Assembly: GCA_958295825.1 (NCBI GenBank)
Contig: OY282375.1
Coordinates: forward strand, 665,489 to 729,488
Source of the DNA: an uncultured Candidatus Entotheonella sp.
GTDB taxonomy: Bacteria; Tectomicrobia; Entotheonellia; Entotheonellales; Entotheonellaceae
Direction of reading: 5' to 3'
DNA: 64,000 nt
Position numbers and translations under genes: made by a program. The first letter of the stretch is position 1; each line of letters starts with the position of its first letter. The notes under the pieces were generated by a model that did not search any database, had not been told where the DNA came from, and was given only the letters and a program-made list of their open reading frames with translations. Positions 1,668 through 15,193 of this stretch are shown in pieces.

Positions 1668-3785
1668 TTAATGCCTGTCCACAGCGTCTTGGGGCGCAAG
1701 ATGTTCAAGCACGAGGTAGTTGAGCGGGTGCACCTGGGCGCGAAACCGGCTGCTGACGACGGTGGCGGTGTCGTCTTCGACGATGACGGCTGGCCCGGTA
1801 AGCTGCGCCCCCGGCGGCAGGTCGCGGCGTTGATAAACCGGCGCGGTGAGCGGTTCTCCAGTCACCGTGTCGACGATGCGGCGCTGACCGCCGGACGGCG
1901 GGACAGCGACGGCCTGGGCCGGCTCGACGACGGGGGCGGGCGCTTCGTCGGCGGTGCTGACCAGCAGGACCCAGGTGAGAATTTCCACTTCGAGGTACGG
2001 GATGCTACGTTCGTAGAGGCGGCGGTACTCGCCCTCGAACGCCGCCAGCAGGACGGCCGGCGCGTTGGGCTCCAGGCGCGGGGTGTGAATGCGCACCGGC
2101 AACTCGACGCCCACCTCGTGGCCCTGGCCGACGTAGCGCATGAACGCCGTGCGGGTCTCGCTCAGCGGCCGGCCGGCGGCGCCGGCTTCGACTACGGCGA
2201 GCGCCTCGGCGCGCATGGCGTCCAGCAGGGCGTTGGCGGCGCCGACGTCGAGCGACGTCACGCGCTGGTAAAAGCTGCGGGTCACCTCGTACGACACCGG
2301 CGCCCGCAGAAAGCCGATGGCGGAGCCCACACCGGCCTCGGGCGGGATGACGACACGCCGCACGTTCAGCTTTTCCGCCAGCCGCGCGGCGTGTAGCGGG
2401 GCGGCGCCGCCAAAGGCGATGAGGGTGCGGTTTTCCACAATCCGGCCGCTTTCGATGGCGTGCACGCGCGAAGCGTTGGCCATGTTCTCGTCCACTATTT
2501 CGGACACCCCGAGGGCGGCCCCGCCGGCGTCGAGGTCCAACCGCTTGCCGACGCCGTGCAACAGGGCGTCAGCGGCTTTGTCGTGGTCCAGCACGATGCG
2601 CCCGCCGGCGAACTGCTGCGGGTCGATGCGCCCGAGAACAACGTCGGCATCGGTGACGGTCGGGTGCTCGCCGCCGCGGTCGTAGCAGGCCGGGCCGGGT
2701 TCCGAGCCGGCACTCTCCGGCCCCACGGCGACGCGCCCCAAGGCGTCCAGCGTGGCGATGGAGCCGCCGCCGGCGCCGATTTCGACCATCTGGATGACCG
2801 GAATGCGCAACGGGATGCCGCTGCCCTGCAGGAACCGGTAGACGCGCGCCACCTCGAAGCTGCGCGAGGTTTGCGGAGCGCCATCGTCGATCAGGCAGAT
2901 TTTGGCGGTGGTGCCGCCCATGTCGTAGGACAGCACGGCGTCCAGCCCGAGCTGGCGCGCGACGTGGCTGGCGAAGATGGCGCCGCCGGCCGGGCCGGAT
3001 TCGACCAGGCGGACGGGGAAGCGGACGGCGGTTTCGAGGGTCGTGATGCCGCCGCCGGACAGCATGAGATAGAGCGGGCAGCGCAGCCCGGCGTCGGCCA
3101 GTTGTTGTTGCAGGCCGCGCAGGTGGCGGCTCATCAGCGGCTGTACGTAGGCGTTGGCGCAGGCCGTCGAGATGCGCTCGTACTCGCGCATTTCGGGCGA
3201 CACCTCGCTGGACAGCGTGACTTCCAGGTCGGGTAGGGCGGCCAGCAGGATGTCGCGCGCCTGTTCTTCGTGGGCGGCGTTCATGTAGCTGTGCAGAAAG
3301 CCGATGGCGACGCTGCGCACGGCTTGCGAGCGCAGGCGGGGAATCAGGGCTGCGACGTCGGCCTCGGCCAGGGGCAGCAGCACCTCGCCGCGGGCGTTGA
3401 GGCGTTCGCGCACCGGCAGGCGCAGGCGGCGCGGCACCAGCGGGGTGGGCAGGTCGATGTCGAGGTCGTACTGCTCATAGCGGTTCTCGTTGCGCATCTC
3501 GATGACGTCACGGAAGCCCTCGGTGGTGACCAGCGCCGTTGCCGACCCCTTTTGCTCGATCAGCAAATTGGTGGCCAAGGTGGTGCCGTAAATCACCGTG
3601 GTGACGGCCTGCGGCTGCACGCCGGCGCGTTGCAGCACCTCGCGCACGCCCTGCAGCACGCCGTGTTCCGGCGCTTCGGGGGTGGTGAGCGTTTTGGCGG
3701 TGTGAAAGGCGCCGCCGATTTCCAGCGCCACGTCCGTGAACGTGCCGCCGATGTCCACCGCCAGCCTGATTTCTTCTGCCGCCAT
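1668..3785 (-). CDS. hyuA: Hydantoinase A / N-methylhydantoinase A / 5-oxoprolinase subunit
   Basis: 705-aa ORF. N-terminus MAAEEIRLAVDIGGTFTDVALE (the DxGGTFTD motif of the hydantoinase A family). Full-length family architecture. Confidence 0.9.
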   Translation of the reverse strand: MAAEEIRLAVDIGGTFTDVALEIGGAFHTAKTLTTPEAPEHGVLQGVREVLQRAGVQPQAVTTVIYGTTLATNLLIEQKGSATALVTTEGFRDVIEMRNENRYEQYDLDIDLPTPLVPRRLRLPVRERLNARGEVLLPLAEADVAALIPRLRSQAVRSVAIGFLHSYMNAAHEEQARDILLAALPDLEVTLSSEVSPEMREYERISTACANAYVQPLMSRHLRGLQQQLADAGLRCPLYLMLSGGGITTLETAVRFPVRLVESGPAGGAIFASHVARQLGLDAVLSYDMGGTTAKICLIDDGAPQTSRSFEVARVYRFLQGSGIPLRIPVIQMVEIGAGGGSIATLDALGRVAVGPESAGSEPGPACYDRGGEHPTVTDADVVLGRIDPQQFAGGRIVLDHDKAADALLHGVGKRLDLDAGGAALGVSEIVDENMANASRVHAIESGRIVENRTLIAFGGAAPLHAARLAEKLNVRRVVIPPEAGVGSAIGFLRAPVSYEVTRSFYQRVTSLDVGAANALLDAMRAEALAVVEAGAAGRPLSETRTAFMRYVGQGHEVGVELPVRIHTPRLEPNAPAVLLAAFEGEYRRLYERSIPYLEVEILTWVLLVSTADEAPAPVVEPAQAVAVPPSGGQRRIVDTVTGEPLTAPVYQRRDLPPGAQLTGPAVIVEDDTATVVSSRFRAQVHPLNYLVLEHLAPQDAVDRH

Positions 3786-4025: not shown

Positions 4026-4574
4026 TCACCCGGCTGTGAAACGGTCCGTCTGCTGCAACAGGCGGTGAATGGCTGCCGCCTTGCGGCGCAGGTCGTCCGC
4101 CTCGCTTCTGCTTTGCGCCGACACGTCATACGTCAGGTCCGCAACGGCATGATAACGCTCGCGCCGTTCCGCCCACACCTGGGCAATTTCCGCTTCCGCG
4201 GACCCCTGTCCGGTGAGCGACGGCCGGTGGCTGTGGCGAGCAATACGAGCCGCCAGCACCGACAGGTCGCCGCAGACGAGCAGGACCACCACACTGCATT
4301 CTTTGAGGACCCGCTCGTTAGCCTCGTCGACCAGGGCGCCGCCGCCGACCGCGATGACGTGCTTGCGGAGCCGCGCGGCGGCCGCCACGACCTGGCGCTC
4401 CAGAGCGCGAAAATGCTCCCAGCCGTGCTGCGCCACGATGTCGTTGATGGACGTGCCGGCGCGGCGCACGATGTCCTTATCGGTGTCGCGGAAGCCGTAG
4501 CCCAGCAGGCGGGCGAGGACCCTGCCGAGGGCGCTTTTGCCGGTGCCGCGCAGGCCGGTCAGGACGACGTTCAC
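4026..4574 (-). CDS. aroK: Shikimate kinase
   Basis: N-terminal Walker A MNVVLTGLRGTGKSALGRVLA. Length of 182 aa and position downstream of aroA are typical. Confidence 0.85.
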   Translation of the reverse strand: MNVVLTGLRGTGKSALGRVLARLLGYGFRDTDKDIVRRAGTSINDIVAQHGWEHFRALERQVVAAAARLRKHVIAVGGGALVDEANERVLKECSVVVLLVCGDLSVLAARIARHSHRPSLTGQGSAEAEIAQVWAERRERYHAVADLTYDVSAQSRSEADDLRRKAAAIHRLLQQTDRFTAG

Positions 4575-4577
4575 GCC

Positions 4578-5867
4578 TCACACCTTCTCGACGGCGACGC
4601 CAAGGTGCTGCAGGTCATCCCAGAAGCCGGGGTAGGTCTTGGCGACGCAGCCCGGCTCGCGGATGCGGATACCCGGCAGGCGGGCGCCGGCCATGCCGAA
4701 GCACATGGCCATGCGGTGGTCGTCGTAGGTGTCGATTTCCGCGCCGTGCAGGGCCGCGGGGTTGCCGGCGATGCGCAGGCCGTCGGGCAATTCCGTCACC
4801 ACGGCGCCGATTTTGCGCAGTTCGGTGGCCAGGGCCCGAAGGCGGTCGGTTTCCTTGACGCGCAGGTTGGCGATGTTGCACAGGCGCGTTTCACCCGGGC
4901 AGAAGGCGGCGAGCACGGCGACCGTCATGGCGGCGTCGGGGAGGGCGTTGAGGTCGAGGTCGCCGAGCGGCCGTAGCTGCTGCGGCCCGGCAACGCGCCA
5001 CCCCTGGCGCCGCGACACGGTGCAGCCCATGCGCTCCAGCACTTGCAGGAAGCGCGTGTCGCCCTGTACCGAATCGGGCGGCACGTTGGTGACGCACATG
5101 GTTTGCCCGAGCAGGGCGGCGAGGCCCCAGAAATAGCTGGCCGCGGACGCATCGCCCTCGATGGCGTAGTCACGGGCCGCGTACGCCTGCCGGCCCGGAA
5201 TGCGAAACAGCCGGTAATCATCGTGCGCCACTTCGACGCCAAAGCGCGCCATGATGTCCAGGGTCAGGGCGACATAGGGCACCGACACCAGCGTGTCCTG
5301 CACCGCCAGCACCACGTCCTGCCGGGCGTACGGCGCCGCCATCAGCAGGGCCGACAGAAACTGGCTGCTGATGGCGCCCGAAACGGTGGCGTGGCCGCCT
5401 TGCAGGCGCGTGGCGCCGATGCGGACCGGCGGACAGCCGTTGCCGCGCACGCTGGCGACGTCGGCGCCAAGCTGGCCGAGGGCAGCGAGCAGGTCGGCGA
5501 TGGGGCGCTCCTGCATTCGCTCGTTGCCGGTAATCGTGACGGCGAATCCCGCCAGGGTCATCATGGCGGTCAGGAACCGGGTCGCGGTGCCGGAATTGCC
5601 GAGGCAGAGGGGGGCGCCGGGGTTGCTGAATCGCCCGCCCAAGCCGTGCACGGAGAAGGCGTCGCCGTCGTGCGCAACCTTGATCCCCAGACGTTCGAGG
5701 GCGGCGCGCGCAACACGTGTATCGTCGCTGATCAGGGCGCCGCGCAGGGTGCTCGCGCCGCGCGCCATGGCGGCGATGGTCAGAGCGCGGTTGGTATAGC
5801 TCTTGGAACCGGGAACGGCGTGTTCCGGCGCGATGCCGGGGGTTGGGATGACCTCGATGCGTTCCAT
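4578..5867 (-). CDS. aroA: 3-phosphoshikimate 1-carboxyvinyltransferase (EPSP synthase)
   Basis: 429 aa. KSYTNRALTIAAMARG and LGNSGTATRFLTA motifs typical of AroA. 4-nt gap to aroK. Confidence 0.9.
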   Translation of the reverse strand: MERIEVIPTPGIAPEHAVPGSKSYTNRALTIAAMARGASTLRGALISDDTRVARAALERLGIKVAHDGDAFSVHGLGGRFSNPGAPLCLGNSGTATRFLTAMMTLAGFAVTITGNERMQERPIADLLAALGQLGADVASVRGNGCPPVRIGATRLQGGHATVSGAISSQFLSALLMAAPYARQDVVLAVQDTLVSVPYVALTLDIMARFGVEVAHDDYRLFRIPGRQAYAARDYAIEGDASAASYFWGLAALLGQTMCVTNVPPDSVQGDTRFLQVLERMGCTVSRRQGWRVAGPQQLRPLGDLDLNALPDAAMTVAVLAAFCPGETRLCNIANLRVKETDRLRALATELRKIGAVVTELPDGLRIAGNPAALHGAEIDTYDDHRMAMCFGMAGARLPGIRIREPGCVAKTYPGFWDDLQHLGVAVEKV

Positions 5868-5968
5868 GCGCGGCTCGTTAGGATGACTCCGGGCGGGAAA
5901 CGATGCCGGAGCGGGGGAGGCAATTGTTCATCCTGCGCGCGGCAGGACGCTGGGATGCAGTAAGGGAA

Positions 5969-6045
5969 GGTACCCCCGAGACGATTCGAACGTCCGACAC
6001 ACGGCTCCGGAGGCCGTTGCTCTATCCATGCTGAGCTACGGGGGC
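5969..6045 (-). tRNA. tRNA-Arg (anticodon CCG)
   Basis: Minus-strand sequence GCCCCCG-TA-GCTC-AGCATGGATA-GAGC-A-ACGGC-CTCCGGA-GCCGT-GTGTC-GGACG-TTCGAAT-CGTCT-CGGGGGT-A-CC folds as a 77-nt cloverleaf. It has a 7-bp acceptor stem, a GTTCGAAT T-loop and an anticodon loop CT-CCG-GA. Confidence 0.8.
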
Positions 6046-6157: not shown

Positions 6158-6766
6158 ATGCACGGCAATCCACAGAAAGACTCACGAGGCGTTTCGCCTT
6201 CCTTCAGCATAAAACAGAAGTTGCGTCCTGGCTGTTCGTGGTTTCGGCAGTGGCGCGGCTTGGCGCTTCTGGCTGTCATTGGGTTGACGGTTTGGGGCTG
6301 CGGTTACATGCTCATCGGTGCGCCGTCGGCCAGGCTCGACCAGCGGGTGGCCGTGGAGCCGTTCGCCAACGAAACGCGCGAACCCGGGGTGGAACATTAC
6401 GCCACCGCGGCGCTGCGCCAGGCGCTGATGCAGGGCCGCGGGTTCGTGCTGACCTCGGCAGCCGCGGCGCCGACGCGGGTACAGGGCCGCGTTCGCCGGT
6501 TGCGCGCCACGGCGCTGTCGTACGGCTCGAACGACAACGTGCTGGAGTACCGCCTTGAAGCCGACTTCCGCATCGTCGTGCTGAGCGGGGAGGAGCCGCA
6601 GCCGTTGCTGCAGCATGACATCCCGGCGCGGGCCGAGTATTTGGTGTCGCGCACCGGGGACGTGCGCGAGGAGGCCGTCGCGCGCGAGGCCGCCCTGGCC
6701 CTGCTGGCGCGGCAGTTTGCCGAGCGCTGCGCCGCCTGGCTGACCATCGCCTTGTTGGAAGAGTGA
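6158..6766 (+). CDS. lptE: LPS-assembly lipoprotein LptE-like
   Basis: Signal-peptide-like LALLAVIGLTVWGCGY with a Cys lipobox. Body ...ATALSYGSNDNVLEYRLEADFRIVV... resembles LptE. Stop overlaps holA start, the conserved lptE-holA arrangement. The true start may be a downstream TTG near 6221. Confidence 0.55.
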   Translation: MHGNPQKDSRGVSPSFSIKQKLRPGCSWFRQWRGLALLAVIGLTVWGCGYMLIGAPSARLDQRVAVEPFANETREPGVEHYATAALRQALMQGRGFVLTSAAAAPTRVQGRVRRLRATALSYGSNDNVLEYRLEADFRIVVLSGEEPQPLLQHDIPARAEYLVSRTGDVREEAVAREAALALLARQFAERCAAWLTIALLEE

Positions 6767-6770
6767 CCGC

Positions 6771-7778
6771 ATGCCGCGTCTTGCCATCGCCGAGCTCTGG
6801 CGTCGATTGGACCAGGGAACCATCGATCCGTTCTACCTCTTCTTTGGCCAGGAAGCCTACCTGATCCGCGAGTACACCGAGACCCTCACGGCCCGCATTC
6901 TCGGCGCCGCGCCACGCGACTTCAATTTCGACCGTTACGCCGTGACGGATCGCGACAGCCTCGCGGAGGCGCTGGGAACGGCCCGCACCCTGCCCGTCAT
7001 GGCGGTGCATCGCGTGGTGGTGGTGCAGGATTTACAGGCGTTGCGCAAGGCCGATTGGAAGCTGTTGGCAGGCTACGTGACGTCGCCTTCCGAGAGCACG
7101 GCGTTGATCGCCGGCAGCCGCGACAGCGAGCCGAAGAAGTTTCCCGATTTCGTGTGGAAGCACGCGGTGGCGGTGGCCTGCGCGCCGCTGGAGGGCGGCA
7201 ACCTGCGCGGCTGGGTGGCCAAGGCGATGTCGGCGGCGGGCTACCGCATGACCGACGAGGCGATTCGCGGCCTGTTGCAAGACCATGACCCCGACCTGCG
7301 AATTCTGGAGCGCGAGATCGAGAAGCTGTGCACCTACGTGGGCGAGCCGGGGGAGGTGAGCCTGGAGGACGTGCAGGCGGTGGGGCAGGCGTCGCGGCAG
7401 CATTCCCTTTTTGCGCTGTCCGACGCGCTCGGCGGCCGTCAGCCGGGGCCGGCGTTGCTGGAAATCGACCACCTGCTCAATCAGGGTGAGCCGCCGCTTG
7501 TCGTCATGAGCATGATCGTGCGGCACTTCCGCCTGCTGTGGAGCATCAAGCAACTCGGCGGCCAAGACCAGGACCGCTACCGTATCGCCAAGACGTTGCG
7601 CTTGCCGCCCAACGTGTGTCGCACTTTGATGGCGCAGAGCGGCGCCTTTTCCGCCGAGCGGCTGCAGGCATTGTACGGCGCGGCTTTGGAGGCGGATTTG
7701 ACGTTCAAGAGCACGAACAAACCCCCACGGGCCATTCTGGAGGGTTTGATTCTCCAGTTATGCGCGGGGGTTTACTAG
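6771..7778 (+). CDS. holA: DNA polymerase III delta subunit
   Basis: 335 aa. N-terminus ...DPFYLFFGQEAYLIREY... and length typical of HolA. Follows lptE. Confidence 0.85.
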   Translation: MPRLAIAELWRRLDQGTIDPFYLFFGQEAYLIREYTETLTARILGAAPRDFNFDRYAVTDRDSLAEALGTARTLPVMAVHRVVVVQDLQALRKADWKLLAGYVTSPSESTALIAGSRDSEPKKFPDFVWKHAVAVACAPLEGGNLRGWVAKAMSAAGYRMTDEAIRGLLQDHDPDLRILEREIEKLCTYVGEPGEVSLEDVQAVGQASRQHSLFALSDALGGRQPGPALLEIDHLLNQGEPPLVVMSMIVRHFRLLWSIKQLGGQDQDRYRIAKTLRLPPNVCRTLMAQSGAFSAERLQALYGAALEADLTFKSTNKPPRAILEGLILQLCAGVY

Positions 7779-8053: not shown

Positions 8054-8178
8054 AAATGAAGTCTCCTTTTGGTGGGCGGGCAGTATAGCAATTCGAGTTT
8101 CTGATTTCCAGTTTTTAGTTTCTGGTTTTTAGTGAACCCGCTTTTAGTGGAAAGAGGTTCAGGGATAAAGGGCGCATC

Positions 8179-11100
8179 ATGGAGCGGCGTGGCAACAGGG
8201 GTGGGCGACATATCGAGACCTACGCGCATACCGACAAGGAGCGTGTGAACAACCCGCCCGTCGGCTTGGTTACACCGGACACCGACCGCGACGCGGGCCG
8301 CAGGACCTACGCTCACGACCCGCACCTGGACCCACAGTTGTCCTGGGCCGGCAAGGCGGAGCATACCTCGTTCGAGGTGCCGACCGTGTCGCTGCACGTG
8401 CACGAACGCATCGACCCGCGTACGATCGTCGAAACAGCGCGCAAGCGCAACGGTGCGGAACCGCAGATGTCCTTGTTCGCCGCGCCGGAGGAAAACCCGC
8501 CGCTCCGTCAGGCTATCGAATTCTACCGGCACCGTCACAACTGGACCAACCGCCTGATTGCCGGCGACAGCCTGCTGGTGATGAACAGCCTGATCGAGAA
8601 GGAGGGCCTTGGCGGGCAGGTGCAGACGGTCTATCTCGATCCGCCCTACGGCATCCGTTATGGCTCCAACTTCCAGCCCTTCGTGAACCGGCGCGAGGTC
8701 ACCGACGGCAGGGACGAGGACCTGACCGGCGAGCCGGAGCAGATTCGCGCCTTCCGGGACACCTGGGAGCTTGGCATTCATTCCTACCTCGCGTATCTCC
8801 GGGACCGCTTGTTACTGGCGCGTGAGCTTTTGCATGAGAGCGGCAGCTGTTTCGTGCAAATCGGCGATGAGAACGTCCACCGCGTCGGCGTGGTCATGGA
8901 CGAGATCTTCGGTGCGGATAATCGGATGACGACGATTTCGTATGCGACAACCGGAGGGAGTTCCGCGAACACGTTGCCGCAGGTGGCGAACTATCTGCTC
9001 TGGTACGTAAAGGACAAGGGGCGCGCCAAGTACCGTCAGTTGTACGAGGAATTGACGCGGAAGGAAATTGTCGAGCAGATGAATTGGGATGCCATGGTTG
9101 AATTGGAGGATGGCAGTTGTAGATCGCTGTTGGCCACTGAGAAAGCTGATCCAGACAGAAACTTGCCATCGGGTGCCCGGCTGTTCCAACGCGCCATGCT
9201 GACATCACAACACGAGTCGCGCACCGGACGGTCTGAACCATACAAAGTCAGCGGAAGAACGTATATCTGTCCACGGAATCGGCAGTGGCAAGTGAGCAAA
9301 GAGGGCCTTGATCGTTTGACAGAAATTGGTCGCTTGGATTTCAGCGGACAGCACGCCAGACTGGCCTGGAAACATTACGAGGAGGAGATTCCGGGGAGGC
9401 GGTTAAACAATGTCTGGGCGGATCTGGCTCGCCCGGTCGACAAGCTTTATGTGGTTCAGACAGCGATTAAACTCCTGCAGCGAGCCATCCTGATGACCAC
9501 CGACCCCGGCGACTTGGTGTTCGATCCCACCTGCGGCTCCGGCACCACCGCCCACGTTGCCGAGCAGTGGGGCCGCCGCTGGATCACCTGCGACACCTCG
9601 CGGGTAGCCATCGCCATTGCCCGGCAGCGGCTGATGACCGCCAATTACGATTATTACGAGCTGGCCCATCCCGACGAGGGCGTCGGCGCCGGGTTCCGCT
9701 ACCGCAGCGTCGCCACCGTGTCGGCGCGAACCTTGGCCTACGACGAGCCGCCCAACGAGACCTTGCTCTACGACCAGCCGCATCGCGATCGCCGGAAGGC
9801 CCGCGTCACCGGTCCGTTCACCGTGGAGGCGGTGCCGGCTCCCGTCGTCAAGGCCGTGGATGAGATCATGGATGCTCATCCCGACCCCGGCGCAAGCCCC
9901 GCCGCCGACCTTTCCATCGCTCGCTCCGGCGAGACCCTGCGGCAAAGCGACTGGCGCGACGAATTGCTCAAGACCGGCATTCGCGGCAAGGCCGGACAGC
10001 GCATCTCGTTCGCGCGGCTGGAACCGTTGCCGGGAACCCGCTGGCTGCACGCCGAGGGCGAGACGCGCCCGGACACCGCCGGCGCCGACCACGTCCACGA
10101 CCCCGCAACCGCCTACACGTCCACGCCCCTTGTCGCCTCGTTCGGGCCGGACCACGCACCCCTGGAGCAGCGGCAGGTCGCCCGCGCCATCGAGGAGGCG
10201 CAAAGCCTCGTCCCCAAACCGAAGATGATTGTCTTCGCGGCGTTCCAGTTCGACCCCGAGGCGGCCAAAGACATCGACGAGACCCACTGGCCCGGCGTCA
10301 CGCTGCTCAAGGCGCAGATGAACGCCGACTTGCTGACCGAGGACCTGAAGAAGAAGCGGGCGAGCAACGAGAGCTTCTGGCTGATCGGCCAGCCGGACGT
10401 GGAAGTTTCGAGTTTTCAGTTTTTGGTTTTTGGTGAGGGGCAGCGGAGGATTGGCGGCTATGGAGCGTTCAGGAAGCTATCGGGACTTGAGCGTTTGGAA
10501 GAGATCAATCGGCTTGATTGGCAGGCTCTATGCCTCTACGCGCTCCTGTCCCAGGGAAGAGACGTATGGCGTTACCTCGCAGATACGCAGGGCTGGGATT
10601 TCGATAGCGGCCAATCTCGCGGAAGGCCAAGCCAGCAACACGAGCGGGGAGTTCCGGCAGTTTCTTGGAATAGCCCAAGGCTCGTTGGCGGCATTGGAAA
10701 CGCTGCTGACGATCTCGCAGAATTTGGGATATCCGACCTCGCCGGATGCCGCAGGGTTATTGAGCGACTGCGAGGCGATCGGCGGGTTGTCGGCGGGCTT
10801 GCAGAAGTCGCTGAAGCCCTGGATTTTCCCATCCATCCCCACGCTCGAACCTATCAACTCACAACTCAAAACCTGCACAGCCTCGCGGTGCGCGGCTTTG
10901 ACTACTACAACACCAAGACCGGCAACGTCGAATCCGGCGGCGCGGACCGCATCGCCCTGTGGATGCTCGACCCGGATTACGACGGGCGCAGCCTGTTTCC
11001 GCGCCAGGTGTTCTTCCCCATGGCCGGCGGCAATGACGGCTGGGCGAGATTGGCCCGTAATCTCAGAGCCGAAATCGACCAGGGCCGGATGGAAGCCTAC

Positions 11101-11208
11101 CGCGGCACGGTGTCGCTGCCGTTCGAGGCGGGAGAGCATGGACGGGCGGCGGTGAAGATTGTGGACGACCGGGGGATCGAGAGTTTGAAGATCGTGGAGT
11201 TGGGGTGA
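8179..11208 (+). CDS. mod: Type III restriction-modification Mod (N6-adenine DNA methyltransferase) subunit carrying an in-frame about 150-codon insertion
   Basis: DPPY motif (VYLDPPYGIRYGSNFQPF) followed by AdoMet motif I (LVFDPTCGSGTTAHVAEQ), the beta-class order. Mod C-terminal signature ...GFDYYNTKTGNVESGGADRIALWMLDPDYDGRSLF...AAVKIVDDRGIESLKIVEL. The codons between ...LIGQPDVEV (about 10405) and LTTQNLHSLAVRGFDYY (about 10860) are not Mod-like. Confidence 0.85.
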   Translation: MERRGNRGGRHIETYAHTDKERVNNPPVGLVTPDTDRDAGRRTYAHDPHLDPQLSWAGKAEHTSFEVPTVSLHVHERIDPRTIVETARKRNGAEPQMSLFAAPEENPPLRQAIEFYRHRHNWTNRLIAGDSLLVMNSLIEKEGLGGQVQTVYLDPPYGIRYGSNFQPFVNRREVTDGRDEDLTGEPEQIRAFRDTWELGIHSYLAYLRDRLLLARELLHESGSCFVQIGDENVHRVGVVMDEIFGADNRMTTISYATTGGSSANTLPQVANYLLWYVKDKGRAKYRQLYEELTRKEIVEQMNWDAMVELEDGSCRSLLATEKADPDRNLPSGARLFQRAMLTSQHESRTGRSEPYKVSGRTYICPRNRQWQVSKEGLDRLTEIGRLDFSGQHARLAWKHYEEEIPGRRLNNVWADLARPVDKLYVVQTAIKLLQRAILMTTDPGDLVFDPTCGSGTTAHVAEQWGRRWITCDTSRVAIAIARQRLMTANYDYYELAHPDEGVGAGFRYRSVATVSARTLAYDEPPNETLLYDQPHRDRRKARVTGPFTVEAVPAPVVKAVDEIMDAHPDPGASPAADLSIARSGETLRQSDWRDELLKTGIRGKAGQRISFARLEPLPGTRWLHAEGETRPDTAGADHVHDPATAYTSTPLVASFGPDHAPLEQRQVARAIEEAQSLVPKPKMIVFAAFQFDPEAAKDIDETHWPGVTLLKAQMNADLLTEDLKKKRASNESFWLIGQPDVEVSSFQFLVFGEGQRRIGGYGAFRKLSGLERLEEINRLDWQALCLYALLSQGRDVWRYLADTQGWDFDSGQSRGRPSQQHERGVPAVSWNSPRLVGGIGNAADDLAEFGISDLAGCRRVIERLRGDRRVVGGLAEVAEALDFPIHPHARTYQLTTQNLHSLAVRGFDYYNTKTGNVESGGADRIALWMLDPDYDGRSLFPRQVFFPMAGGNDGWARLARNLRAEIDQGRMEAYRGTVSLPFEAGEHGRAAVKIVDDRGIESLKIVELG
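10460..11155 (+). CDS. Four-helix-bundle protein (TIGR02436-like, '23S rRNA intervening-sequence protein' family) ORF embedded in mod in the +1 frame
   Basis: MERSGSYRDLSVWKRSIGLIGRLYASTRSCPREETYGVTSQIRRAGISIAANLAEGQASNTSGEFRQFLGIAQGSLAALETLLTISQNLGYP...LQKSLK matches the 4HB family over the first ~118 codons (to about 10810). GGAGGA RBS sits 8 nt upstream. The frame then stays open to 11155, so the 3' end is uncertain. Confidence 0.55.
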   Translation: MERSGSYRDLSVWKRSIGLIGRLYASTRSCPREETYGVTSQIRRAGISIAANLAEGQASNTSGEFRQFLGIAQGSLAALETLLTISQNLGYPTSPDAAGLLSDCEAIGGLSAGLQKSLKPWIFPSIPTLEPINSQLKTCTASRCAALTTTTPRPATSNPAARTASPCGCSTRITTGAACFRARCSSPWPAAMTAGRDWPVISEPKSTRAGWKPTAARCRCRSRRESMDGRR

Positions 11209-11259
11209 TGGAGAGACAGAAGCAGGGCGGGGAAAATCATTGAAAAGATCGAGAGCGTG

Positions 11260-12066
11260 ATGGCGCCAACGAAAAAAGGCAAAGCGCTTGAACGGTTGCG
11301 GAAGGCGCTGGACGAAATCGCTGAATTGAAACAATTATCGTCGGATTCTCCGCAATTCAAGACATGGCGGAGAAATGCAGGGGTTGCCATCAGAGAAACG
11401 TTTGGTAGTGCTTCAGATCATATCAGGGAGTTTAGAGGATCACAGTTTGCTGTTTCTGGTCGATCTGATTCCGAAATTAGAAAGGCCTATATACGAGATT
11501 TGGAATCGGATGCGGCGATGCTTCAATCCATGATTGATGAGGTTAATGAGTATTGGAAAGACGAGAGCGAGATGCCAGGATCTTCCGATAGTCACGGAAA
11601 CGAACAGGTAAACACGAAAGAAGTCTTCATCGTTCATGGCAGGGACGAAGGTGCCCGCGAAAAGGTGGCGAGGTTTCTGGAAAGGTTGGGACTCGATCCC
11701 GTGGTGCTGCACGAACAGCCGAATGAGGGCCGCACGATTATTGAAAAGTTTGAGGGTTATGCGCACGTCCGGTTTGCTGTGGTTCTGTTGACGCCAGACG
11801 ACAGAGGCGGACTTCAGGACGATGAGGGCAGTTTCAAGCCCCGCGCAAGGCAAAACGTCATTTTCGAGTTCGGGTACTTCATCGGAAAGCTCGGTCGGGA
11901 ACGCGTCTGCGCCTTGGTGAAGGGGGAGGTGGAAAGACCGTCAGATTACGATGGCGTTATTTACATTACACTTGATGATTCGGACGGGTGGAAAATGAGA
12001 CTTATCCTGGAGCTGAAGAACGCCGGATACGATGTCGACGCGAACCGGGCATTTACTACACCATGA
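11260..12066 (+). CDS. Two-domain protein: uncharacterised N-terminal domain plus C-terminal TIR-like (COG4271/pfam10137-type) domain
   Basis: C-terminal ...KEVFIVHGRDEGAREKVARFLERLGLDPVVLHEQPNEGRTIIEKFEGYAHVRFAVVLLTPDD... fits the TIR-like nucleotide-binding domain. The N-terminal ~110 aa are homologous to the N-terminus of the protein at 32978-34261. Located between mod and res. Confidence 0.7.
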   Translation: MAPTKKGKALERLRKALDEIAELKQLSSDSPQFKTWRRNAGVAIRETFGSASDHIREFRGSQFAVSGRSDSEIRKAYIRDLESDAAMLQSMIDEVNEYWKDESEMPGSSDSHGNEQVNTKEVFIVHGRDEGAREKVARFLERLGLDPVVLHEQPNEGRTIIEKFEGYAHVRFAVVLLTPDDRGGLQDDEGSFKPRARQNVIFEFGYFIGKLGRERVCALVKGEVERPSDYDGVIYITLDDSDGWKMRLILELKNAGYDVDANRAFTTP

Positions 12067-12247: not shown

Positions 12248-15193
12248 ATGGACGACGGCGCACGGGCAAATTCCGGAATGGCTGGCGCCGCCAACGTCCG
12301 ACGAACCCCTGGAGAGCGAATAGTGGCCCGCACGACAATCGATCAATTGATCGTCAATTCTCCCTACGAAGAGCCGGCGGAACACTGGTAGTACGACCGG
12401 GTTACACGCTCGTTCGACCGTGCAGAAGGCCGGCGGCCGGCAGGCTATGTCGTCGCTTCCCAGGCTTCCAGGGCGTTTGACGACCCCGGCGCGTTTGTCG
12501 AAATCCCCTTGGTCAATCAGATCCGGCCGCGCGTCAAGGCGTGGCGTGAGGCGGGATATCCGGGCGTCACCGGCATGACCAAGCGGCTGCTTACGCACTG
12601 GACCGACCCGGAGGAGTTTGACAGCCGGCGTTTCTTCTTCTGCCAGGTCGAAGCGGCGGAGACGCTTATCTGGTTCACCGAAGGGCCGGCGGTCGAAAAG
12701 GTCGGCGTGGAGATTCCCTCCGATGGCGGCGCGTTCAGACGGCTGTGCGCAAAAATGGCGACAGGCTCAGGCAAAACCGTCGTCATGGCGATGGTGGCGG
12801 CGTGGCACGTCCTGAACAAGGTGACGTCGCCCCAGGACACCCGGTTCGCCAGGCACATTCTGGTTGTCGCGCCGGGGTTGACGGTCAGGAACCGCCTGGC
12901 GGTGTTGGAGCCGTCCCACCCGGAGAACTATTACGACGCCTTCCGCATTGTGCCGCCGGCTCTGCTCGATAAGCTGCGACGGGGCAAGGTCGCAATCCGC
13001 AACTGGCACGCGCTCAACTGGGAGGGTGAGGACAAAATCGCCGCCCGGCGCGGCGTGGACAAGCGCGGCGCCAAAAGCGACGAGGCCTATGTCCGCGACG
13101 TGCTCGGAGACATGGCGCGAGCGCGGAACATCCTGGTCATCAACGACGAAGCGCATCATGCCTGGCGCGTTCCTGCCGGACCCAAGCTGAAGGGCGTGGC
13201 CAAGGCCGACGTCGACGAGGCCACGAAATGGATTGGCGGGCTCGACCGCATCCACGGGGCACGGGGCATTCTCGCCTGTTATGACTTCTCGGCAACCCCA
13301 TTCGCGCCGTCAGGCAAGCAGAGTTCCGAAGAGGCGCTGTTCGGCTGGATCGTGAGCGACTTCGGCTTGAACGACGCTATCGAATCGGGTTTGGTCAAGA
13401 CGCCGCGCGTGGTGATCCGGGACGACGCAGTGCCCGATGCCAAGAGCTACAGATCCCGCCTCTATCACATCTACAACGATGCGGAGGTCAAGGACGACCT
13501 GAACCGCCGCGCCAAGACGGAAGAACCGCTGCCCGATCTGGTCCTGAACGGCTATTACCTGCTTGGCTATGATTGGCGCGAGACGGCGAAAGACTGGCGT
13601 GAGAAGGGATTCCAGACCTCGCCGGTCATGATTACCGTTGCCAACCGCACGGAGACGGCAGCTCGCATCAAGTACGCGTTTGATCACAAGAGGGTCCGCA
13701 TCGAGGAGCTATGCGACCCGGAGCGAACCCTGCACATCGATTCGAAGGTGCTTGAAGCGGCCGAGGCTGCAGCGGAGCCCATTTCGGACATTGACGCGGG
13801 AGAACGCGCGGGAGGTGGAGACGATGGCCCTTCGACGCAGCTCACCAAAAAACAGCAGGCCGAGTGGTTGCGACGGCGGGTGGACAGTGTGGGCCGGGTC
13901 GGCAAGGAGGGTGAGCGAATACTGAACGTGATTTCCGTCGGCATGCTGTCCGAAGGATGGGACGCGAAAACCGTGACCCACATCATGGGGCTGCGCGCGT
14001 TTACCAGCCAGCTTCTCTGTGAGCAGGTGGTCGGGCGCGGCTTGCGCCGGACCGCTTATGAGGTGGACCCGGATAACGGCCTGTTCCAGCCGGAATACGT
14101 CAATATCTTCGGTGTGCCCTTTGCCTTTTTACCTCATGAGGGTGGAACGGACGGCCCACCGCCGCCGCCGGAACCAAAGACGGCTATCGAGCCGGTAGCG
14201 GACAAGGCGGGTTTCGAAATCTCCTGGCCGAACGTGGTCCGCATCGACCACGGCTTCCGTCCGCACCTGTCCCTGGATTGGCAGGCGCTGCCTCCCCTGG
14301 CACTGGATGCCAGCCAGACGGCTCAACTGGCGGAGCTTGCTCCGATCGTCGAAGGCAAGCCCGACGTGTCGAGGATCGAGGCCATCGATTTGCAAGAACT
14401 GGCGGCGGAGTTCCGCACGCAGCGCATCGTCTTTGAGACCGCGCGGGACGTGTACGATCTGATGCAACCGAATTGGCCGGGCGGCAAGGCGTTGCTGCTG
14501 GCTCAGCTGGTACGGTTGATCGAGCAATTCGTCCGTTCGGACCGCATCAGGATGACCCCGGCTCTGTTCCGGCACGACGATCTCAAGCGCCGCCTCGTCA
14601 TCACGTTGAACATGACCAAGGTCGTGCAGCATGTCTGGGAGGCAATTCGCTTCGAGAACACCGAAAGACCGGAGCCGGTGTTTGACCGGGACCGTCCTGT
14701 CCGTTCTACGGGTGACATGGCGACGTGGTACACGGGCAAGCCCTGCGAGCGCGCGGCGCGCAGCCACGTCAACTTCTGCGTCTACGACAGCACGTGGGAG
14801 GCGTCGGAAGCCTTCGTGTTCGACCGTGCCGACGAGGTAGCCGCCTGGGTAAAAAACGATCACCTTGGCTTCGAGGTGTTCTACGTTCACCGAGGCGTGG
14901 TGCGGAAGTATCGCCCGGACTTCCTGATCCGGCTCGGCTCGGGCGACATGATGGTTCTGGAGACCAAGGGCCGTGACAGCGATCAGGACCAAACCAAGCG
15001 TCGGTTCCTCGACGAATGGGTGCGTGCCGTCAATGCTCATGGTGGCTTCGGTCGCTGGTCTTGGGACGTGTCGAAAAATCCCGGTGATGTCCGGGACATT
15101 CTCGCAAGGCATCTACGTGCTGCGGGCAACGTCGCGGCGATGGAAACACCCAGGGTTCGGGGCGACGCGTCGAACCGGGTTTCTGGCCGGTAA
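12248..15193 (+). CDS. res: Type III restriction enzyme Res subunit (SF2 helicase plus C-terminal PD-(D/E)xK nuclease), frame interrupted by an in-frame TAG at 12389-12391
   Basis: Helicase motifs ATGSGKT, VINDEAHHAW, SEGWDAKTV and QVVGRGLRR. C-terminal nuclease region FEVFYVHRGVVRKYRPDFLIRL...VLETKGRD. The N-terminal Res-like stretch ...TIDQLIVNSPYEEPAEHW*YDRVTRSFD reads from the ATG at 12248 through a TAG in the same frame as the 12509-15193 ORF. Confidence 0.8.

Follow-up and report, generated by a model that had tools for sequence, protein, structure and literature searches.

A four-helix-bundle gene nested out of frame in a Type III mod gene of Candidatus Entotheonella, probably carried by an S23p-type intervening-sequence cassette

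Introduction

How does a complete gene come to lie inside the reading frame of another, and how could both still be read? The question is raised by a 64,000-nucleotide (nt) stretch from an uncultured Candidatus Entotheonella sp. (contig OY282375.1; hereafter the window), in which the Type III-like mod gene of a restriction-modification (R-M) locus holds an insert with a four-helix-bundle (4HB) gene, which shares the strand of mod and is read in its +1 frame. We propose, with a probability of about 0.72, that the insert is an S23p-type intervening-sequence (IVS) cassette in a permissive surface loop of Mod, that Mod would be translated through it, and that the 4HB is a nested gene of the +1 frame; the proposal rests on comparative sequence analysis. 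An earlier reading of the letters, made without database searches (the sequence-only reading), had noticed the insert and had set three accounts of it side by side: a mobile intervening element, a domain insertion that re-targets or regulates Mod, and an internally promoted nested gene.

S23p, a 4HB protein, is encoded by IVSs of 23S rRNA. That of Coxiella burnetii is 428 nt long, lies in helix 45, is closed by a 28-bp stem of terminal inverted repeats and is excised by RNase III (PMC4990558). It carries an S23p open reading frame (ORF) preceded by tandem heptamers, the number of which varies between strains, and its S23p is thought not to be expressed (PMC4990558). S23p-encoding IVSs also occur in the 23S rRNA of Leptospira, Brucella and Xanthomonas, and the origin and function of these elements and of the abundant 'four helix bundle protein' genes have been debated since the early 1990s (hypotheses reviewed in PMC4990558).

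The insert replaces a loop tip in Mod

Two Mod anchors, NESFWLIGQP (ending at 10395) and GFDYYN (starting at 10894), lie 498 nt apart in the window. The same anchors are separated by 51-96 nt, mostly 63, in the 41 insert-less homologous loci that could be parsed. The net insertion is ~435 nt (145 codons) at roughly 10404-10884, close to the in-frame insertion of about 450 nt that had been described from the letters. The Mod frame crosses it without a single stop, as had also been noted, and the resulting peptide includes LSGLERLEEINR. Both the alignment and a structural model, in which the insert falls between two long strands, indicate that a beta-hairpin loop in the C-terminal part of Mod has had its tip replaced by the cassette. 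Pfam recognises only PF01555 in the 1009-aa Mod (N6/N4 methyltransferase domain, aa 148-481, E = 4.9e-28); it finds no match in the Mod-frame insert, and no Hint or endonuclease domain.

The insert encodes a complete 4HB protein

The +1 frame of the insert matches TIGR02436 over its full length (1-109 of 109; E = 1.3e-26, 93 bits against a cut-off of 24), PF05635 (E = 1.2e-27, 96.6 bits against 33.8) and NF008911 (E = 2.9e-33), and is related to the solved S23p structure PDB 2GSC (XCC0516; E = 5.4e-19). Its peptide includes SYRDLSVWK. The sequence-only reading had recognised a complete TIGR02436-type protein and had made this depend on significant matches to profile hidden Markov models (HMMs) of TIGR02436 or the 4HB families; the matches lie well above the cut-offs. 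The ribosome-binding site (RBS) and start that it had assigned, GGAGGA at 10445-10450 and ATG at 10460, are likewise in place.

It had further observed that the +1 frame stays open to 11155, where a TGA indeed ends it (11153-11155). The cause had escaped it: the 4HB stop codon has been lost. Relatives end the 4HB ORF with CCC TGA and the window has CCC TGG, so that the frame runs on; the same base change replaces Asn by Asp in the Mod frame. The 4HB ORF of the window is consequently 231 aa long, outside the ~115-130 aa of a stand-alone protein of this type, and in most homologous loci it is 120-122 aa. The read-on tail is specific to this lineage and probably not functional. A similar loss of the 4HB stop is seen in one other locus (L022).

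Both reading frames are maintained

Codon-position variability (mean pairwise difference per alignment column, 27 loci with the cassette) separates the two frames. In the Mod-only flanks the third codon position is the most variable (positions 1/2/3, ~0.19/~0.14/~0.51). Within the stretch shared with the 4HB (10460-10819) the Mod positions give 0.49/0.27/0.24. Position 1 of Mod is here position 3 of the 4HB; wobble tracks the 4HB frame, and the 4HB is therefore under purifying selection. This pattern bears out the nested-gene account. Synonymous sites of the 4HB (0.49) vary as freely as ordinary synonymous sites (0.51). By this measure the Mod-frame insert peptide is essentially dictated by the 4HB frame, and it shows no sign of selection beyond the avoidance of stops. 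In the arms of the cassette the pattern of variability goes back to that of the Mod frame, in relaxed form. Conservation of Mod is equal over the 300 nt on either side of the cassette, and the Mod segment at 10885-11208 is under strong purifying selection in cassette-bearing loci; from this conservation we infer that translation continues through the cassette.

Stop counts complement this pattern. In a shuffle test the 4HB peptide of each locus was kept, its synonymous codons were shuffled and stops in the Mod frame were counted. The window would be expected to contain 3.9 such stops and contains none (P(zero) = 0.008). Across the 27 motif-parsed loci the expectation is 1.4-7.3 stops (P(zero) 0-0.19 per locus), and 26 of the 27 have none. 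The converse test finds the 4HB frame uninterrupted in 23/27 loci, against 2.4-5.8 stops expected. In Brocadia loci, whose GC content is 40-42%, the third frame contains 18-24 stops and the Mod frame is free of them. As in a same-strand dual-coding region, both frames are open beyond expectation and a signature of selection is present. The two are maintained for different reasons, the 4HB by purifying selection and the Mod frame by the purging of stops.

Chance was considered as an explanation, given that open alternative frames are common in GC-rich DNA, that the window insert has 57% GC and that spurious long ORFs abound in the region; so was an assembly or frameshift error. Against either stand the recurrence of the arrangement in 33 independent assemblies, some of them labelled single-chromosome, its presence in AT-richer genomes (Brocadia), the very strong HMM matches and the shuffle tests. 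Together these leave chance or artefact practically excluded.

A structural model was made with AlphaFold2 (AF2) for Mod residues 560-1009 from 72 aligned sequences. In it the insert is flanked by two long antiparallel strands (model residues 181-192 and 335-352) that correspond to the translated arms; helices follow the strands and a central segment is disordered. The predicted local distance difference test score (pLDDT) is 74-90 for the ordered parts, and 84-90 for part of the Mod-frame insert. When the insert is modelled alone (22 sequences) the same secondary structure is returned with a pLDDT of only 45, for which reason the in-context values are not taken as robust and no fold is claimed. 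The top Foldseek match of the Mod C-terminal model in the PDB, MspJI, is not significant (E = 5e-3, TM score 0.16).

The model invites another explanation, in which the insert has been exapted as a working part of Mod, for example as a helical module on a beta-ribbon stalk, with the 4HB frame as a relic. Such a domain would alter target recognition, oligomerisation or contact with Res. It would fit the open Mod frame in 26/27 loci, the long beta-hairpin with helices predicted together with the Mod C-terminus, and Mod-frame motifs such as KLSG..L.EI..L and RLR that recur across clades. The motifs, however, recur because the 4HB is conserved. Wobble follows the 4HB frame, with Mod position 3 the least variable and position 1 the most, and the synonymous sites of the 4HB are as free as normal ones. 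The low confidence of the isolated model, the lack of any Pfam match in the Mod-frame insert and the absence of the insert from most retrieved Mod homologues point the same way. We regard an exapted domain as quite unlikely, and the domain insertion re-targeting or regulating Mod, one of the three original accounts, found no positive support.

The cassette is bounded by inverted repeats of heptamers

Across loci the cassette measures about 435-500 nt and has a constant plan. Most loci have a 4HB ORF of 120-122 codons that begins 61-64 nt after the start of the insert and stops 32-71 nt short of its end; a GGAG/GGAGG-like purine motif precedes the ATG by ~8-13 nt in most cassettes. The leader and tail are inverted repeats of 7-nt units, which come in two types. 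The first, GTTTTGA-type on the left and TCAAAAC-type on the right, is found in the window and in L001-L005, L007, L009, L010, L018 and L029; in the remaining clades the left arm is made of AGTGGAT/AGTGAAT and the right arm of ATCCACT. Arm sequences are thus wholly different between clades yet complementary, both sides having changed together.

Arm duplexes have energies of -26 to -53 kcal/mol (mean z = -4.5 relative to shuffled arms). A helix model of an 18-bp and a 7-bp helix was assessed on a 27-sequence alignment (35 pairs, including outer flank pairs that were later rejected). Pairing is possible in 68% of cells; displacing the partner by 1-3 columns lowers this to 35-46%. The covariation score of 0.179 compares with 0.086 for shuffled data, and none of 500 shuffles reached it. 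Six pairs change wholesale between G-C and U-A. RNAalifold returns a weak consensus for the arms alone. An outer helix extending into the Mod flanks (alignment A5, columns 4-15 with 490-502) was discarded, being mostly unpaired across loci.

Even at E <= 1 the insert matches no Rfam family, and Rfam recognises no rRNA in the window; the host of this cassette is the mod ORF, not helix 25 or 45 of 23S rRNA. A promoter and terminator scan gave no match 5' of the 4HB, and in particular no sigma-70-like site.

The arms raise the possibility that the element acts at the RNA level. In the mod mRNA they would serve as a substrate for RNase III, and cleavage would free a 4HB transcript and split or destabilise the mod mRNA, tuning the levels of Mod and of the downstream Res; read-through translation would then be secondary. 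Arm complementarity conserved through compensatory changes favours this, as do an architecture like that of the RNase III-excised Coxiella IVS and the existence of free-standing copies within operons, for instance between oppB and oppC. Constant excision without ligation, however, gives no reason for stops to be purged from the Mod frame or for Mod to be conserved downstream. The stem would also be melted by ribosomes reading the Mod frame, Rfam has no match, and the fold of the whole insert is no better than that of shuffles. As the principal explanation RNA-level processing is unlikely; as a partial, regulatory process it can coexist with a nested gene in a translated-through cassette. None of the rival explanations discussed here is in fact mutually exclusive with that one.

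Related repeats without an ORF occur near by. In the window a solo heptamer array (8090-8135, + strand; GAGTTTC TGATTTC CAGTTTT TAGTTTC TGGTTTT TAG) lies between rpsT and mod; it resembles the 5' arm and has no inverted partner in the 64-kb window. The equivalent place upstream of mod in L011 (3817-3883) holds a complete ORF-less heptamer hairpin, and L031 has another in or beside its mod gene (5923-6006). Three otherwise insert-less loci carry an ORF-less palindromic hairpin in the same Mod loop (L066, 6292-6387; L069 and L076, both 6286-6381). This hairpin, ccctcacccc..ccctctccc...gggagaggg..gggtgaggg, adds 33 nt net, is in frame and is read as PSPQPSPTGRGSKGEG. It would seem that this Mod loop attracts, or at least tolerates, hairpin elements. 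A longer insert of 651 nt is present in L029 (6265-6915, Planctomycetaceae), where the 5' arm units are duplicated, both arm orientations occur on either side of the 4HB and both frames are open.

Cassettes occupy the same loop in many phyla

On one point the sequence-only reading needs correction: the insert is not peculiar to this Mod gene but common to many homologues. A protein search with Mod yielded about two dozen insert carriers among the 120 matches listed, with 67-99% identity and the insert at exactly the same position; 18 insert-carrying homologues among these matches are 990-1010 aa long. About 95 of the matches listed, of 840-910 aa, have the short loop ER[IV]..GEDEGK[FY]R in place of the insert. 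The alignment to orthologues that had been suggested as a check therefore divides: many orthologues do share these residues, but they do so as carriers of the cassette rather than through a conserved region of the Mod family, and most of those retrieved are without it.

Protein homologues derive from gene calls, which are biased toward open frames, and the survey was accordingly repeated at the DNA level with one genome per species. Among the best 80 loci the cassette occupies the same Mod loop in 33 species-representative genomes (L001-L032 and L065), which span well over ten phyla. By the names in their source records the carriers belong to Entotheonella/Tectimicrobiota, Nitrospirales, Binatia, Chthonomonas, Brocadia, other Planctomycetota, Thermodesulfobacteriota, Dehalococcoidia, Anaerolineae, Bacteroidota, Acidobacteriota, Bacillota, Alpha- and Gammaproteobacteria, Kiritimatiellia and Hydrogenedentes; for L024 the candidate source is Candidatus Brocadia sapporoensis, and for L007, L018 and L023 other Brocadia enrichments. 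With an HMM made from the embedded 4HBs, all 33 insert-carrying loci give a 4HB match and no insert-less Mod locus has one within 6 kb; the 4HB is accordingly rejected as a regular partner of this R-M family. The same HMM detects in L031 a second, distantly related 4HB gene (7075-7433+, 69 bits) that has no heptamer arms and directly follows the mod stop.

A profile-free search with the Mod-frame peptide in 1.8 billion cluster representatives extended the range to distant Mod subfamilies (28-34% identity) that carry the insert at the homologous loop. Most matches were fragments of this Mod family, and only one, P0131, was clearly a different host. Long multi-stretch proteins (P0137, P0142 and similar), which match only short repeated segments, were not counted as hosts.

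Free-standing cassettes and a second host gene

The nearest separately called 4HB proteins, 60-74% identical, prove to be encoded by free-standing intergenic cassettes with the same heptamer arms (Table 1). In these the -1 frame, which corresponds to that of the host, contains 3, 1, 2, 2 and 3 stops within the 4HB span (L083, L090, L091, L092 and L097, respectively). A further copy, L093, has no -1-frame stops; it is nearly identical to Mod-embedded cassettes, has one arm truncated and looks recently derived from such a cassette. The idea that a stop-free -1 frame is inherent to the cassette is largely rejected by these copies, L093 being the exception. In agreement with the shuffle test, the stop-free Mod frame would be a property of embedded copies and not of the cassette family, as judged from a small control of about four independent lineages. 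L094-L096 are N-terminally truncated Mod remnants that have retained the cassette.

A second host gene was found on a Logan contig of 1932 nt (SRR25242035), where P0131/L081 (gene 131-1789) corresponds to the N-terminal region of a DrmMI/Type IIG-like methyltransferase. Its cassette has AGTGGGC-type arms and comes directly after the GSHYTP motif. No stop interrupts the host frame within it, and the +1 frame encodes an intact 4HB. About 35 codons past the cassette the host ORF ends; it has a degenerate motif I, and the contig is only 1.9 kb long. Inverted repeats, dispersed copies (L083, L090, L091, L092, L093, L097) and in-frame insertion in Mod and in a DrmMI-like gene are the features of a miniature inverted-repeat transposable element (MITE) or of a Rickettsia palindromic element (RPE).

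Relatives of the 4HB in the databases match both PF22296 (bAvd) and PF05635. No reverse transcriptase was present among the genes called ~3 kb either side of the free-standing cassettes; in the 6-kb flanks of the Mod loci the search was for 4HB genes only, and template and variable repeats were not searched for. The free-standing cassettes of L090, L091, L092 and L097 belong to Caldilineaceae-type genomes, which have several of them. The 5.9-Mb Caldilineaceae genome to which L090 and L091 belong has two close copies, with a third PF05635 gene adjoining one of them, and also an insert-less Mod (L054). L090 itself contains two 4HB genes (3001-3363 and 4558-4935), 1.2 kb apart.

Exchange and decay

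In a neighbour-joining tree of the Mod flanks, cassette-bearing and cassette-less alleles are interleaved, and so are the two arm types. For several carriers the nearest allele is an insert-less one and not that of another carrier (L005 and L066 are 0.90 identical, L013 and L061 0.88). Identities of flanks and cassettes are poorly correlated (r = 0.38): L007 and L023 share 0.90 of their flanks and 0.69 of their cassettes, L009 and L018 0.70 and 0.96. On these comparisons the history of the cassette is uncoupled from that of Mod. Together with the arms, the heptamers, a size like that of the Coxiella IVS, the free-standing copies and the second host, this speaks for the mobile intervening element among the original accounts and suggests that the cassette is, or was, mobile.

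Mod is intact through the cassette in about 27/33 loci. The 4HB has premature stops in L002, L005 and L018 and is truncated at its N-terminus in L020. Mod is broken in L006, L008, L018, L030, L032 and L065. In L032 (6446-6691) a further insertion of ~245 nt divides the 4HB (HMM positions 1-39 and 55-119) and also disrupts the Mod frame; the leader of L030 is frameshifted, and in L065 the C-terminus of Mod is deleted. The 3' arm of L006 has gained two heptamer units (~6739-6752, +14 nt relative to L001) and that of L008 has lost one (~6758, -7 nt relative to L001), and the Mod frame is shifted in both. The window copy is in early decay, with weaker pairing of the arms and the 4HB stop lost; the 4HB domain is intact.

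The heptamer indels of L006 and L008, which are known from comparison between species only, could represent inactivation or a slippage-based on/off switch. If the latter, the cassette would be a phase-variation module: seven is not a multiple of three, and gain or loss of a slippage-prone unit would toggle Mod as in phasevarions. The two shifted frames and the leader frameshift of L030 can be read in this way, and heptamer copy number also differs among strains with the Coxiella IVS (PMC4990558). Arrays of only 3-5 imperfect units are, however, poor slippage substrates; the variants separate species representatives rather than members of a population and may be plain inactivation, and the conservation of the 4HB is left unexplained. 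A phase-variation module is very unlikely.

A model for the cassette

We propose that the cassette would be transcribed within the mod mRNA; no promoter-like site precedes it. Ribosomes would translate Mod straight through the cassette, adding ~145 net residues that are set mostly by the 4HB frame; the translated arms would probably pair as the strands of an extended beta-ribbon. The 4HB, as a nested gene of the same strand, would be translated separately, starting at its own RBS and ATG. The cassette would persist because reading through it is harmless to Mod, and it would be a selfish or formerly mobile passenger and not a dedicated R-M component, because its close relatives are found in opp operons and at other intergenic sites unrelated to defence. 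Occurrence of the same cassette in such sites and in rRNA is also the reason to think that the 4HB probably serves the element, in maintenance, mobility or nucleic-acid binding like its relative Avd, rather than the R-M system.

Several observations weigh against this model. They can be summarised as follows: (i) no transposase or integrase is associated with the cassette, and its patchy distribution could have arisen by homologous recombination between mod alleles following an ancient insertion; (ii) the arms of the window pair weakly (-35.8 kcal/mol, z = -1.5) and its 4HB stop is lost, so that the local copy may no longer work as described; (iii) the minimum free energy fold of the whole insert RNA closes the insert but is no better than that of shuffles (z = -0.87); (iv) the arm covariation comes mainly from two or three clades and represents few independent events; (v) the 4HB or Mod is broken in the loci named above; (vi) part of the Mod-frame insert is modelled with good confidence in context, and some adaptation of the peptide is possible; and (vii) translation of both frames through the cassette is deduced from conservation.

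Comparison with known systems

The closest counterpart is the 23S rRNA IVS of Coxiella. It has a similar size (428 against about 435-500 nt), a stem of ~28 bp, heptamers of variable copy number beside the ORF and a single ~120-aa S23p/PF05635 ORF; in both cases the element replaces the tip of a hairpin, and in both the ORF decays in some lineages. Long-stem terminal inverted repeats around an S23p ORF with adjacent heptamers, in an element of ~0.4-0.75 kb, are what defines an S23p-type IVS. Because the same parts stand in the same order, we read the Mod insert as such a cassette in a new kind of host site. It differs from the rRNA elements in that the host is a protein-coding gene whose reading frame runs through it and has been purged of stops, and in that its ORF has a good RBS and is under purifying selection. 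RNase III excision cannot be the whole story here.

RPEs, of ~100-150 bp, likewise lie in frame within ORFs and have no independent gene (PMC10969869). With RPEs and MITEs the Mod cassette shares a palindromic structure, in-frame insertion in a protein-coding gene, predicted translation with the host protein and apparent compatibility with the host fold, and the ORF-less 33-nt palindrome in the same Mod loop (L066, L069, L076) is RPE-like. The cassette differs from them in having a conserved gene of its own in a different frame, which would make the region dual-coding.

Nested same-strand genes in another frame are represented by comS within srfAB of Bacillus subtilis and by genes B, K and E of phage phiX174, where the internal gene is believed to be the product of overprinting on an existing one. 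As in these, a complete gene with its own RBS lies within a longer ORF and both frames are maintained. Here, in contrast, the 4HB belongs to an older, widespread family, the Mod frame would have been laid over it after insertion, and the unit exists independently. Inteins and homing endonucleases resemble the cassette as in-frame selfish insertions at one conserved site that are patchy over the host tree; they differ in that the Mod-frame insert has no Hint or endonuclease domain, the protein of the element is in another frame, and nothing suggests protein splicing. The accessory protein Avd/bAvd of diversity-generating retroelements (relatives in PF22296/PF05635; PMC10053308) belongs to the same superfamily as the 4HB.

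The S23p IVS as a type of element, in-frame palindromic insertions and same-strand nested genes are all already known. What is new, as far as found, is their combination: an IVS-type cassette with a gene under selection, out of frame in a protein-coding host that is read through, in many phyla and with stops purged. Searches of open-access papers found no description of a 4HB or IVS inside mod or another protein gene, which, with this limited coverage, is weak evidence of absence. The conservation reported here would be comparative evidence for a 4HB protein that is produced and has a role, in contrast to the Coxiella copy, which appears to be silent. It would also provide a natural bacterial example of dual coding on one strand, long (120 codons) and with a known direction of overprinting. 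A comparison of Mod genes that have and lack the cassette offers a tractable system for the role of the 4HB and for cassette movement. Gene callers report only the long Mod ORF, and nested 4HB genes are thus missed in annotation.

A wider generalisation is tentative and, at present, doubtful: S23p/4HB IVS cassettes might be a widespread mobile class that colonises any transcribed hairpin-like site, loops of defence genes included, and survives as translated introns, in which host ribosomes pass through a frame purged of stops and the protein of the element is made from another frame, with the heptamer arms acting as a switch of the host by slippage or RNase III cleavage. If true, it would unify the 23S rRNA IVSs with in-frame insertions in R-M and DISARM methyltransferases.

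The restriction-modification locus

The features of the window and the free-standing cassettes are collected in Table 1. Among defence models the top match of the Mod protein is Type III Mod (PADLOC MTase_III, E = 5.7e-148). The cognate res gene is present in the same operon, with the TIR-like gene between it and mod.

Table 1. Features of the cassette and of the R-M locus (window positions), with free-standing cassettes of other genomes
Feature	Position	Strand	Basis or remarks
Type III-like mod ORF	8179-11208	+	1009 aa; frame 0 open across the whole cassette
Whole cassette (arms, RBS, 4HB gene)	10404-10884	+	Boundaries by alignment with insert-less homologues; AF2 model
5' inverted-repeat arm	10404-10430	+	Heptamers AGTTTCG AGTTTTC AGTTTTT GGTTTTT; Mod frame ..VSSFQFLVF..; alignment A5 columns 18-44
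GGAGGA Shine-Dalgarno	10445-10450	+	9 nt 5' of the 4HB ATG
4HB (S23p / TIGR02436 / PF05635) coding domain	10460-10819	+	120 codons, +1 frame relative to Mod; HMMs, PDB 2GSC, wobble pattern
Lost 4HB stop codon	10820-10822	+	TGG; TGA in L001, L003, L006, L008 (alignment)
Read-on tail of the 4HB ORF	10823-11155	+	110 extra codons of out-of-frame Mod sequence + TGA 11153-11155
3' inverted-repeat arm	10847-10873	+	..CCTATCA ACTCACA ACTCAAA AC, complements the 5' arm; Mod frame ..YQLTTQN..; A5 columns 461-487
Mod C-terminal segment 3' of the cassette	10885-11208	+	Variability at codon positions 1/2/3 = 0.19/0.135/0.505, 27 cassette-bearing loci
CAP12/Pycsar TIR-like gene (PDC-S35), between mod and res	11257-12066	+	PF10137 4.7e-40; PADLOC PDC-S35 9.2e-88
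Type III res gene	12509-15193	+	894 aa; PF04851; PADLOC REase_III
Free-standing cassette L083			Between Asp/Arg hydroxylase gene and cofD
Free-standing cassette L090			After amino-acid permease gene
Free-standing cassettes L091, L092, L097			Between oppB and oppC (ABC-transporter operon), three assemblies

A second in-frame insertion, a DUF559/MTES_1575 endonuclease-like domain, is present in the Mod homologues P0005, P0008, P0020, P0025, P0041, P0057 and P0143, immediately before the position equivalent to residue ~575 of the window Mod. P0005, P0008 and P0041 have both this insertion and the 4HB cassette, and the Mod family seems to be one that tends to accumulate nested insertions. A tRNA gene (5971-6045, - strand), the sole match above the Rfam gathering threshold in the 64-kb window, lies ~2 kb upstream of the R-M locus. 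The order mod-TIR-res, together with MNT/HepT toxin-antitoxin pairs, recurs in L094-L096.

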